From Fistulifera solaris (Eukaryota): 20,000 nucleotides of DNA. Under the pieces are notes generated by a model. That model was not told the DNA's origin and ran no database searches. It saw nothing but the letters and a program-made list of their open reading frames with translations. The first letter of the stretch is position 1; each line of letters starts with the position of its first letter. Below, one piece after another: positions 13,298-15,733 of the stretch. A program made the translations under genes and the position numbers. The stretch covers positions 805,956 through 825,955 of the forward strand of contig AP026139.1 of the NCBI GenBank assembly GCA_030295235.1, given 5' to 3'.

Positions 13298-15733
13298 ATG
13301 CTGTTTTCTTCTTTATTAACATTGTTTTTGCGGCGCGTATTTCCGTCAACGAAAAGACACACAATATCCGACCAAATTACTCGCATCCAATTTTCGATCG
13401 AAACAACTAGTTCGAGATTCTGGAGTAATATTAATTGATGTAGAGAATCTTCGTGGGAAATCTGGTTTTTCGTTGAATCATCACGAAATATTTAATGCAA
13501 TTGCAGCTTGGGGAGATGATCGAACTGTTCTCATTGTTGATCATGGCTCCTTGCCGAGTGCGCTGTGGATGCATGATGCTCAAATGGCGGTTGTTTTCGC
13601 AGGGCCCTCATGCAAAGCAGACGACGTTATAGCTAATGACTTGGTTCCTTACTTTGCTGAAGTACCCGAGGTAACTTTAGTGACTGCCGATAACGAATTA
13701 ATACAGCGATGTCGGCGAGGTTCACGAGTGACGCAACAATTGAACATCATGTCGCCAATTCAATTGTTAGAAGATCTTGAAGTCGTTCTTGCAGCTCCGC
13801 ATCCGAATTTCTTTGAAAGTCTTACTGAGGACTCTGGCGAAGAAAACAATGATGATAACCCTGCGGAAGAAGACAGAGCAACTCTCGAACTTTTGGAGCA
13901 TGAGATCAAACTGAGCGCACAGTTGCTCGAAGCAGAGGCTCTACTTTACAGCCGTAGGGGAGGTGGATGCTCAAGTATGAATAACAAGCGAAGAAAAAAG
14001 TTGAAACTCAAAGCACAAAGAGTCCGAGAAAAGCTGTTTCTTGCTCGTGAGAGAGGGTCTACTATCAATAAGCTGGTGACTGACCTGGTCCAAAATGGAC
14101 CTAATACTTCCTCTATTCGTGCGTTACCGCAACATCAACAAAATACGTTACTGGCGCGATTCGAAAAGATACGACAATCCTCAACACGTCGAAGGGAACA
14201 AACTGGCGATCGAGTCATTCTTGCGGAGCTACTTCGTCGTCAGTTGTTGCACAAATATGGCATTCCTGCTGCGCAAACGATGCCAGAACCGTCGATCATA
14301 CCTCCTGGTTTCGCATACACCTTGCGACAAGGGACATCGTCACTTTTGAAATACGAGCAAGGAAACGATAGGCGTGACTTAGGCGATTCTGTTGATTGCT
14401 TTGGTCAAGAAAATGATCACCAGTCACTCCGAATTATTGTTGTGTCAGATACCCATGGAATGGAGGATACATTACCCTTGGACAACTCAGATGGAATTCT
14501 GCCCGATGGTGATTTGCTTCTTCATTTGGGTGATTTTTCAATTGATCGTGGCCCTGTACAGGCCTACTTGGAAGCATTTGACAAGTGGTTGGCAAAGCAG
14601 CCCCACAAGTACAAGATTGTTTTGCGTGGCAACCATGATCCTCGACGGCTACATTTTCCTATTTCAGGAGCAACAGTCGTAACCAGCCCGCAAAGCTTCA
14701 AAATCGGTGTTTTTCATTTTTATTTGGTTCCCTTCACACGATCATTGACTGTCCGGTCGATGCCAAGGACTTGTGATGTCGTTCTTTCGCACGTTCCTCC
14801 ACGGGGCCTGTTGGACAACCACTATATGTATCCTGATCGACACGTCGGCGACATAACTATTCGCCGTGGTGTTGAGCGAATGAAAGGAGGTCCTCCTACA
14901 CTTTGGCTATGTGGACATATTCATGAAGGTCGCGGCAGCACACGTTATGCTTTTGTTGAAGACAATGGCAAAGAGACTTTGCTAGTCAACGCCGCTAACG
15001 CCAATGCCGGACTTGCTAGTCGACTGGATCATGGACCAGCTGTAGTAGATCTTAAAGTTGACGAATTGCGCGGAAAATATGCAGAGGTTGTTGCTATGGA
15101 CGGTCAATACGAATTCTTGAATCATCGCTTTACGAAAGATTTCTTTGAAATTGAGCCTGATCCCAGCAATCAGCAACGAGACATGCTTTTAGCGGTTGAT
15201 CTCGGGTTACGGACTGGTCTTAGTTTGTTTAATGACGAAGGAAAGCTTTTACGGTTCGACAATTTTCAATTTGAGTCCCCGGAACAGCTTTTAAGGGCCG
15301 CCAGATCAGTTCTCTCGAGTTGGGAAGAGGACGTGAAAGAAACAGATGAACGCGGAAGGCGGTGGAAGATATCGAAAATCGCGATCGAGGGGGGCGATCC
15401 GCCATTACGTGATGCTTGGCACGAAGCGGCAGAAGGAGGACGCTCTATTCTTCACGTCCGGCCGGAAGAGTGGAGAGCAGACCTCCTTCTCACTAAAGAA
15501 AAGATGGATGGCGAAAAGGCTAAATCTGCGAGTCGATTAATTGCACGTCAAATAGTCTCTGATTATGGCGACTTTGACTTTGAAGGAAAATTTCAAACGG
15601 ACATGGCTGAGTCAATTCTATTGGGTTTGCATGTAGCTCGACGACTGGGATGGATAGCTACACGAGACCCCCAGTTCGCCGTTACTCAAACGGCAAAGTA
15701 ATTGTACCAGAGCAAACCAAGCAACTGGTGTAG
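13298..15733 (+). CDS. Multidomain protein: NYN/PIN-like (YacP-type) nuclease + MPPED/239FB-like metallophosphoesterase + RuvC/RNase H-like domain, about 810 aa
   Basis: In frame upstream of the listed ORF is 'GVILIDVENLRGKSGF', followed by 'LIVDHG', 'ADDVI' and 'VTADNEL'. Calcineurin-like motifs: 'VSDTHG', 'HLGDF', 'GNHD', 'SHVPP' and 'CGHIHEG'. C-terminal motifs: 'LLAVDLGLRTGLS', 'IAIEGG', 'PEEWR' and 'TDMAESILLG'. Adding one C at 15668-15672 gives the ending 'RDPPVRRYSNGKVIVP...*' at 15733. The start is uncertain. Confidence 0.82.

Follow-up and report, generated by a model that had tools for sequence, protein, structure and literature searches.

A diatom gene joining NYN, metallophosphoesterase and RuvC-like domains near a chromosome end of Fistulifera solaris

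Do three sets of catalytic-looking motifs that follow one another in a single diatom reading frame belong to one working gene, and what could such a gene be for? This question is raised by a stretch of 20,000 nucleotides of Fistulifera solaris (assembly GCA_030295235.1, contig AP026139.1, positions 805,956-825,955 of the forward strand), hereafter called the window, within which all positions are counted. An initial annotation, made from the letters alone, had placed there a fusion of an NYN-type RNase, a calcineurin-like phosphoesterase and a RuvC-like nuclease. According to the present analysis, this is very probably an intact nuclear gene, probably transcribed, which encodes one chain of about 811 residues composed of a leader, an NYN domain, a linker, a phosphoesterase and a RuvC-like domain, the whole being conserved and the three centres probably active. 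The three domains are of known kinds, and what is new is their fusion and the unnamed family to which the RuvC-like domain belongs. As a tentative reading, possible but somewhat short of likely, the product would be a compartment-targeted enzyme cutting branched or structured nucleic acids and trimming their ends.

The reading frame and its two homopolymer breaks

The stop-to-stop frame at 13320-15701 on the forward strand is uninterrupted over 793 residues and holds every motif listed in the initial annotation, at the places given there. The ATG at 13298 and the TAG at 15731-15733 sit outside this main frame, and a one-base homopolymer change at each end brings them in. The outer coordinates proposed at first, 13298 and 15733, were therefore exact, and the remark that the supplied track of open reading frames (ORFs) missed the first NYN aspartate and the true C-terminus was right, the two homopolymer errors being the explanation.

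Logan contigs from four public runs of the same organism were compared with the window over 13200-15800; that these runs are of RNA is a guess. Two further runs, X5 and X6, with shares of 0.08 and 0.06, were left out of the comparison. One letter was absent at 13325 in the read contigs (depth 42.2 of 42.2), and an extra letter was present behind 15667, being C or T in run X1 (25.3 and 22.9 of a depth of 48.2) and C in X3 (3.8 of 3.8). Since independent read contigs correct both, the frame breaks are single-base homopolymer errors in the deposited sequence. The corrected gene reads from MLFSSLLTLFCGAYF... to ...DPPVRRYSNGKVIVPEQTKQLV. Its N-terminus agrees with that of P0002, an intact homoeologue-type model that begins MLFSSLL... 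(N-terminus MLFSSLLILFCGAY...), and its C-terminus with that of P0003 (FisN_24Lh002 of F. solaris), which is the best database match of the long frame, with 100% identity and the same corrected C-terminus. The homoeologous copy, FisN_24Hh002, shows 93% identity. Both homoeologues were present among the 32 X1 contigs lying on the compared interval, of which 20 matched at 99% identity or above, four at 95-99% and eight at 90-95%. The homoeologue contigs carried 3-base insertions behind 13953 and 14370, corresponding to the two extra residues of P0002. No joints were seen in the read contigs across the compared interval, and hence no sign of an intron.

The continuous 793-codon frame, the contigs without joints, 49 homologues that align from end to end and multi-domain MMETSP transcripts argue together for one gene rather than three. 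The alternative, namely that the gene is a pseudogene in decay or a chimera of separate genes produced by assembly or gene modelling, so that the fusion would mean nothing biologically, could draw on the two frame breaks as deposited and on the model P0003, which starts from an internal Met and is missing most of the NYN domain. However, both breaks lie in homopolymers and are absent from independent read contigs, the gene runs over 2.4 kb without a stop codon, and the same domain order is found in the 49 full-length homologues, with all catalytic residues invariant, and in complete transcriptome ORFs. This explanation is thus largely refuted and can be given very little credence. The parts of the gene and the annotated neighbours are collected in Table 1.

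Table 1. Positions in the window of the fusion gene, its parts and its annotated neighbours.
Feature	Position	Strand	Remarks
Whole coding sequence	13298..15733	+	about 811 codons + TAG, intronless; as deposited broken by two single-base homopolymer errors
Hydrophobic leader, about 15 residues, then basic Ser/Thr-rich stretch	13298..13342	+	candidate signal peptide or signal anchor
T5 run	13325..13329	+	read contigs have one T fewer; ATG 13298 joins the main frame
NYN domain, YacP/Rae1 type	13422..13796	+	fold model and Rae1 match; invariant D47, E49, N50, D81, D108, D109, D131
LIDVEN Asp	13437-13439	+	
IVDHG Asp	13539-13541	+	
KADDVI	13620-13625	+	
VTADNEL Asp	13689-13691	+	
Helical linker, about 165 residues	13866..14357	+	basic stretch NKRRKKLKLK; invariant E..T..R....E..R block (REQTGDRVILAE.LRR)
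Metallophosphoesterase, MPPED2-like	14427..15050	+	PF00149; motifs DTHG, GDF, GNHD, SH, GHIHE
Phosphoesterase motifs	DTHG from 14448; GHIHE end 14924	+	GDF, GNHD and SH follow DTHG
RuvC-family (RNase H-like) domain	15174..15650	+	invariant D636, E699, D770, E773, W727-R728, K744
AVDLG Asp	15198-15200	+	
IEGG Glu	15387-15389	+	
DMAE	15600-15611	+	
Conserved C-terminal tail (..VRRY.NG.V..P, ending ..DPPVRRYSNGKVIVPEQTKQLV) and stop TAG 15731-15733	15651..15733	+	readable only after correction of the C run
C5 run	15668..15672	+	all covering read contigs have one more base (C in this allele, T in the homoeologue)
ATG7-like E1 enzyme	228-1574	-	
NPL4	2812-3762	-	
LtrA-like fragment	4674-5351	-	
Lysine methyltransferase	7825-8643	-	
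TPR protein	9219-10778	+	

Three conserved domains and a helical linker

At E ≤ 0.001, 193 database proteins matched the gene product, many with E from 0 to 1e-100, and most of the full-length matches covered 94-99% of the query. Such numbers and coverage put the observation far beyond chance. The named matches were all from diatoms (Fistulifera, Nitzschia, Cylindrotheca, Fragilariopsis, Seminavis and a Bacillariaceae metagenome-assembled genome), with Pseudo-nitzschia and Amphora present as fragments and Odontella through cluster membership. All domains were found on single transcripts in P0069 and P0070, two MMETSP ORFs of other diatoms labelled "type:complete", the cluster of P0069 including Odontella aurita; this bears out the single-gene interpretation of the initial annotation.

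The family alignment was built from 49 full-length members bearing all four diagnostic motifs, shorter models on short contigs being excluded as probable truncations, and its residues are numbered according to P0002. Residues invariant in 49/49 members were found in the NYN region (D47, E49, N50, R52, G53, D81, H82, G83, K106, A107, D108, D109, T129 and D131), in the linker (E301, T303, R306, E311 and R314), in the phosphoesterase (D386, H388, D414, N447, H448, H500, H542 and H544) and in the RuvC-like domain (D636, G638, E699, G700, W727, R728, K744, D770 and E773). The conservation of the acidic and histidine residues, proposed at the outset as a check, is therefore complete in this set, and every putative catalytic residue is under strict constraint. 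Because the architecture and the putative catalytic residues are kept together, across both pennate and centric diatoms, all three centres are probably active.

The N-terminal domain was modeled within a 330-residue segment (13377-14366) using the family alignment. The resulting model, m9c8f417b5105, had a mean predicted local distance difference test (pLDDT) score of 81.9, reaching about 90-98 over the first 140 residues, where the NYN domain occupies model residues 16-140. In an exhaustive VIA-align search of 48,161 representative chains, Bacillus subtilis Rae1/YacP (5mq8) was the sole match at Z of at least 8, with a Z of 9.8 and a root-mean-square deviation (rmsd) of 2.8 over 112 aligned residues. 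The next NYN proteins, 2qip and Marf1, followed at Z 6.8 and 6.2. With the same 330-residue model, Foldseek gave Rae1 (5mq9) a probability of 1.00 and an E-value of 0.024, nothing being found at E ≤ 0.001; this weak E-value is explained by the helical linker, which dilutes the score. Profile alignment by hhalign to a bacterial YacP that passes the Pfam cut-off gave E 1.5e-4 and a probability of 52%, and paired VDHG, KADDVI and VTAD with FDG, TADDVI and VTGD, i.e., three of the four Asp motifs. The first one, IDVEN, is similar by eye to IDGNN/IDGHN of YacP. The acids at the four strand ends, D47, D81, D108/D109 and D131, are all among the invariant residues. The YacP/Rae1 identity given in the initial annotation is thus supported by the fold model, and the N-terminal domain is, as modeled, a YacP/Rae1-type NYN fold and not a curated member of PF05991. 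Canonical YacP proteins also occur in diatoms, green algae and cyanobacteria, according to an ESM Atlas lead with a score of 0.76-0.78 only.

Between this domain and the phosphoesterase, model residues 164-327 form six helices predicted with moderate confidence. Among the 48,161 chains, the linker matched nothing above the noise of helical segments, with generic helical hairpins at Z 5-6 only. Matches to Not5/CNOT3 hairpins, Mediator helices and designed bundles (Z 5.3-6.1) were rejected as lying within that noise.

The middle domain is the one that sequence comparison recognizes directly. PF00149 (Metallophos) was matched with 42.2 bits against a cut-off of 21.5 for protein P0001, and 47/49 members matched it at E ≤ 0.1. 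The nearest solved relative is human MPPED2 (3rl4), with E 3.2e-11 for the single sequence and 2.4e-23 for the family profile, and all five metal-binding motifs are present. When the full-length family profile was compared with the sequences of the PDB, the phosphoesterase was the sole match; rows at E ~1 (botulinum neurotoxin heavy-chain entries, mL40 and others) were set aside as chance matches. The calcineurin-like identity read from the motifs alone is thus upheld, and on sequence grounds the middle domain is a complete MPPED2-like metallophosphoesterase of the binuclear type.

The C-terminal model, m133a51982a17, was made from the last 210 residues of P0003, so that the true tail is included. 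It reached a pLDDT of 92.1 and a predicted template modelling score of 0.90, with the topology bbb-a-b-a-b-a, which is the RNase H-like order. The best Foldseek matches were RuvC of Deinococcus, Thermus, Pseudomonas and E. coli, yeast Ydc2, maize MOC1 and the fowlpox resolvase (E 3e-6 to 4e-4). By VIA-align, the best 19 rows were all RuvC-family resolvases (poxvirus A22, MOC1, bacterial and phage RuvC) at Z 14.1-12.0. Among them were fowlpox A22 (6p7a; Z 14.1, rmsd 2.0, 130 aligned residues), ZmMOC1 (13.0), D. radiodurans RuvC (12.9) and the RuvC entries 7xhj, 7w8d, 1hjr, 4ld0 and 6lw3 (Z 12.3-12.9, rmsd 2.4-3.2, 129-135 aligned). Lower matches comprised TEFM and Ydc2 (about 11.7), RuvX (9.6), IS110-type recombinases (9.3-9.5) and Spt6/Tex (about 9). 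In the ESM Atlas, Pox_A22 and phage RuvC clusters come after the protein's own family. Of the invariant acids, the Asp of VDLG comes behind strand 1 and the Glu of IEGG behind strand 4, and the closing D-x-x-E pair sits in the last long helix. D636, E699 and D770-x-x-E773 therefore stand in the RuvC catalytic order, with Glu as the last residue where the canonical layout has D/H-x-x-D, and form the predicted catalytic set. The model thus sustains the RuvC-family assignment with a D..E..DxxE layout made in the initial annotation: the C-terminal domain is, as predicted, a RuvC-family nuclease fold with a D-E-D-E acidic set. It is covered by neither Pfam nor NCBIfam models, and rows for Permuted_GreAB-C, CDC73_C, OrfB_IS605 and DUF460 were rejected, all being under their own cut-offs. 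A homodimer prediction for this domain, run without an alignment and without controls, scored 0.00 against a mark of 0.32, a value that counts neither for nor against dimerisation.

Relatives of the RuvC-like domain and the chromosomal setting

Searching 1.84 billion representative proteins with a profile built from C-terminal fragments gave 469 proteins at E ≤ 0.001. A word-indexed search had been aimed at short stand-alone forms, but its hits were nothing more than pieces of the fused family lying on short contigs, and it was the exhaustive profile search that revealed stand-alone relatives. The bacterial ones match the diatom C-terminal domain at E 1e-20 to 1e-28. They are matched by no Pfam or NCBIfam model, and the Armatimonadota protein MBI3925123.1 (P0208), from a metagenome-assembled genome, is annotated only as "hypothetical protein". 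The bacterial family keeps invariant E, G, W, W-R, K, D and E residues, and the Asp after strand 1 in at least 90% of its members. A scan of one genome per prokaryotic species yielded 343 bacterial loci, all with single-domain genes. The best 80 of them belong to Chloroflexota, Planctomycetota, Rhodothermales, Geobacteraceae and other Thermodesulfobacteriota, Gemmatimonadota, Nitrospirota, Armatimonadota and Bacteroidota; examples are found in Longimonas halophila (locus L041, 4001-4441) and Desulfospira joergensenii (locus L054, 4001-4453).

The eukaryotic stand-alone relatives are longer, with about 230-265 residues, and have an N-terminal leader and the same C-terminal tail, ..ERYTNGNVVLP. 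The named non-diatom eukaryotic members are a stand-alone protein of Rhizochromulina marina and a model of Emiliania huxleyi. In the latter (EMIHUDRAFT_207581, P0157), the RuvC-like domain occupies residues ~240-430, after a CobW/HypB/UreG GTPase domain, and this protein could represent another kind of fusion or result from merging in the gene model.

A quick maximum-likelihood tree was computed from 76 domain sequences (22 fused, 11 other eukaryotic and 43 bacterial) over 159 columns and left unrooted, P0278 being omitted as it had no anchoring motif. The bacteria fell on one side of a branch with a Shimodaira-Hasegawa-like approximate likelihood ratio support of 94. The fused clade received a support of 99, with the Emiliania sequence inside it, and seven stand-alone algal proteins formed a separate clade (93). 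Rhizochromulina P0207 joined the fused clade with a support of 80, and P0205 stayed unresolved beside the bacterial branch. Short and unrooted as it is, this tree is compatible with a single eukaryotic origin of the domain.

The locus itself is nuclear and subtelomeric in this allodiploid pennate diatom, since the neighbouring ORFs are ordinary eukaryotic nuclear genes and TTAGGG repeats close the window. The chromosome end consists of about 60 TTAGGG copies with a few variant units (19635-20000) and places the fusion gene about 4 kb from the telomere. Just inside it, subtelomeric tandem repeats at 19395-19634 comprise about nine copies of a 17-base unit (GGAAGTGTGCAATAGTC), followed within the same interval by about five copies of a related 17-18-base unit (GGACATGTTGCAATAGTC). 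The genes within 228-10778 have no functional link to the fusion gene. Directly upstream of it, an ORF of 402 residues (11552-12760, forward strand) is extremely rich in Glu and Asp, has a coiled-coil-like low complexity and gives no Pfam match. On the other side, a convergent neighbour (15735-16417, reverse strand) encodes a Cys-rich protein of 183-218 residues with no Pfam family. One read contig terminates in a ten-T run just before 15735, on the strand of this neighbour and resembling a poly(A) tail. By this contig end, the poly(A) site of the neighbour falls 2 nt away from the stop codon of the fusion gene; the 3' untranslated regions must hence overlap, and RNA is favoured as the source of the public runs.

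Compartment, proposed function and known systems

In the fused family, the leader opens with 10-18 strongly hydrophobic residues, behind which the sequence is basic, rich in Ser and Thr and poor in acids. A 10-residue window with a mean Kyte-Doolittle value of at least 1.5 was found inside the first 35 residues of 66 of 75 family N-termini, and the nine leaderless ones look like models begun at internal Met codons. Judging from these features, the leader has the appearance of a signal peptide or, possibly, of a signal anchor. In diatoms, a signal peptide for the endoplasmic reticulum (ER) forms the first half of the plastid-import signal, and an aromatic residue normally comes after the cleavage site. 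By eye, a few sequences, including that of F. solaris, could fit this rule (..CGA-YF, ..LGG-F, ..LAS-F, ..KQS-F). The leaders of the stand-alone algal proteins mostly show ..S-F, ..S-Y or ..A-L at the end of the hydrophobic stretch, with Phe, Tyr or Leu coming after a small residue (by eye), and seem to resemble the diatom plastid-import motif. Besides, the named eukaryotic relatives of the RuvC-like module come only from algae with red-derived plastids, namely from diatoms, from Rhizochromulina (a dictyochophyte) and from Emiliania (a haptophyte). Among 14 control genomes, the YacP family was matched in Synechococcus elongatus and Bacillus subtilis, which fits a plastid heritage.

The same leader would also suit a secreted, vacuolar or ER-lumen scavenger, in which RNase, DNase and phosphodiesterase activities serve nucleic-acid breakdown and phosphorus recovery. 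The general scarcity of the plastid-import aromatic in the fused family is in line with such an enzyme, and three phosphodiester-cleaving modules per chain would suit bulk degradation. However, domains of the NYN, MPPED2-like and RuvC-like kinds usually work inside cells, RuvC-type nucleases, being structure-specific, are ill suited to bulk DNA digestion, and the region behind the leader is basic and hydroxylated, as in a transit peptide. No phosphorus-stress expression data turned up, no literature search having been aimed at this point. A scavenging role therefore appears improbable.

In the reading that we put forward tentatively, i.e., a targeted enzyme for branched or structured nucleic acids, the leader would bring the protein into an ER-derived route, and the protein would act inside a membrane-bounded compartment, the plastid system being the most plausible one. 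There, the RuvC-like module would bind and nick junction- or flap-type branches, probably as a dimer by analogy with its structural relatives, the NYN module would cut single-stranded RNA or the strands of RNA and flaps, and the metallophosphoesterase would trim or dephosphorylate the resulting ends. The three modules could thus constitute a single-chain tool for the recombination, repair or turnover of organelle nucleic acids. The initial annotation had imagined another cooperation, a cut-and-heal scheme with processing of cyclic phosphates. Metal-dependent PIN/NYN nucleases leave 3'-OH and 5'-phosphate ends, and NYN cleavage would hence leave no cyclic phosphate for the phosphoesterase to heal; this scheme, unproven, is not favoured. 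As for the defence role suggested along with it, the present results contain no pointer to it.

An enzyme centred on RNA has to be weighed as well. Under this explanation, which we hold to be unlikely, the protein would process, monitor or degrade RNA, either in an organelle or at membrane-bound ribosomes: the Rae1-like NYN domain would cut ribosome-bound or structured RNA, the phosphoesterase would act on 2',3'-cyclic or 3'-phosphate ends or on nucleotides, and the RuvC-fold domain would be an RNase, as RuvX/YqgF in rRNA maturation. Indeed, the best structural match of the N-terminal domain is Rae1, a ribosome-dependent mRNA endonuclease, the linker is basic and helical, and RuvX is among the matches of the C-terminal model. 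Moreover, MPPED2-type enzymes act on small phosphodiesters (we know of no physiological substrate established for them), and the bacterial stand-alone relatives coexist with RuvC and so need not be resolvases. Against this, the C-terminal model is clearly closer to true DNA-junction resolvases (19 entries at Z 12-14) than to RuvX (9.6), the family has its W-R, K and AEA motifs in common with MOC1, and the matches of the linker to ribosome binders (Not5/CNOT3, Z ~5.4; mL40, E ~1-2) are in the noise range.

Several observations speak against the targeted branched-nucleic-acid enzyme proposed here and keep its standing tentative. Neither end domain reaches a Pfam gathering score. For NYN_YacP (PF05991), P0002 obtained 13.2 bits (E 0.089) against a gathering cut-off of 24.6, P0001 gave no match at E ≤ 1, and 15/49 members matched at E ≤ 0.1, the best at E 4.2e-4 and all under the gathering score. 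For PF02075, no match was obtained with P0001 (E ≤ 1), with any of the 49 members (E ≤ 0.1) or with 24 stand-alone relatives (E ≤ 0.01). The best PDB sequence for the family profiles was NtMOC1, with E-values of 0.057 and 0.23 that are not significant, in an alignment pairing W-R with W-K, Lys with Lys and AEA with AEA. Fold likeness in the model is no proof of a common substrate, given that RuvX, IS110/IS621 recombinases, Spt6/Tex and TEFM also match at Z 9-12. Canonical RuvC was present in 5/5 checked genomes with a stand-alone relative, so that the bacterial family as a RuvC replacement is ruled out; it is not simply "the" Holliday-junction resolvase and has a role of its own. The neighbourhoods of the best 80 bacterial loci showed no conserved partner and no DNA-repair theme. 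The gene itself recurred in 47 of these loci, the sole other cluster found in more than seven of them (15) was an opposite-strand shadow ORF lying over the gene, and the remaining neighbours were unrelated (ABC ATPase, sensor kinase, methyltransferases, IF-2B-family protein). Most fused-family leaders have, by eye, no aromatic residue right after the hydrophobic stretch, which argues against classical import into the plastid stroma and would leave the ER, the periplastidial space, secretion or a membrane anchor. Finally, literature searches gave no activity, localisation or phenotype data on the fusion protein.

As the initial annotation had anticipated, full-text searches found nothing on the combined NYN, metallophosphoesterase and RuvC architecture, nor on the two locus tags, FisN_24Lh002 and FisN_24Hh002. 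They also yielded no described Holliday-junction resolvase for the plastids of diatoms or other red-lineage algae, and MOC1 is described for the plant kingdom (PMC7078210). The fusion gene and its stand-alone relatives offer a concrete candidate family for a red-lineage plastid resolvase, and a RuvC-like family widespread in bacteria, for which neither Pfam nor NCBIfam has a model, has come to light. In its most extended form, the scenario would make the RuvC-like module a second family of junction-cutting nucleases, present beside RuvC in hundreds of bacterial species and acquired once by the ancestor of red-plastid algae, with the stand-alone form as plastid Holliday-junction resolvase and counterpart of MOC1, and a copy fused in diatoms to a Rae1-type RNase and a phosphoesterase. 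Taken as a whole, this is doubtful. If true, diatoms would possess one chain able to cut, resolve and trim the nucleic acids of their organelles, something without parallel elsewhere. Besides, the fusion hints, in the manner of a "Rosetta stone", that a single substrate can be shared by NYN RNases of the YacP type, phosphoesterases of the MPPED2 type and the RuvC-like family. Diatoms are transformable, which makes localisation and knockout work feasible.

Compared with known systems, each part of the protein has a recognizable counterpart and departs from it. The NYN domain has the fold of Rae1/YacP (PF05991, 5mq8) and the same order of conserved Asp motifs; however, behind the diatom domain come a helical stretch of about 165 residues and two further enzymes, whereas the Rae1 chain has 174 residues. 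With the MPPED2/239FB type (PF00149; 3rl3-3rl5), the middle domain shares significant sequence similarity and the five motifs, but it lies between two nuclease domains. Its GHIHE corresponds to GHIHEG in 3rl4, whereas 3rl3 and 3rl5 have GGIHEG, which we take to be the MPPED2 wild type. The C-terminal domain resembles the RuvC-family resolvases (RuvC, A22, MOC1 and Ydc2/Cce1) in its RNase H-like fold, the order of strands and helices and the sequence order of the putative catalytic acids, and differs from them as a separate family with an extra conserved tail, ..RRY.NG.V..P. It is homologous to the bacterial family of about 150-165 residues, with the same invariant residues, but the bacterial form is the domain alone, without leader or tail. 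As for MOC1, PMC7078210 gives D116, D118, E175 and E258 as the catalytic tetrad of NtMOC1. The Glu after strand 4 and the terminal Glu (E258 in NtMOC1) are common to both proteins, whereas strand 1 of the diatom domain bears a single Asp (V-D-L-G) where NtMOC1 has D116 and D118 (PMC7078210).

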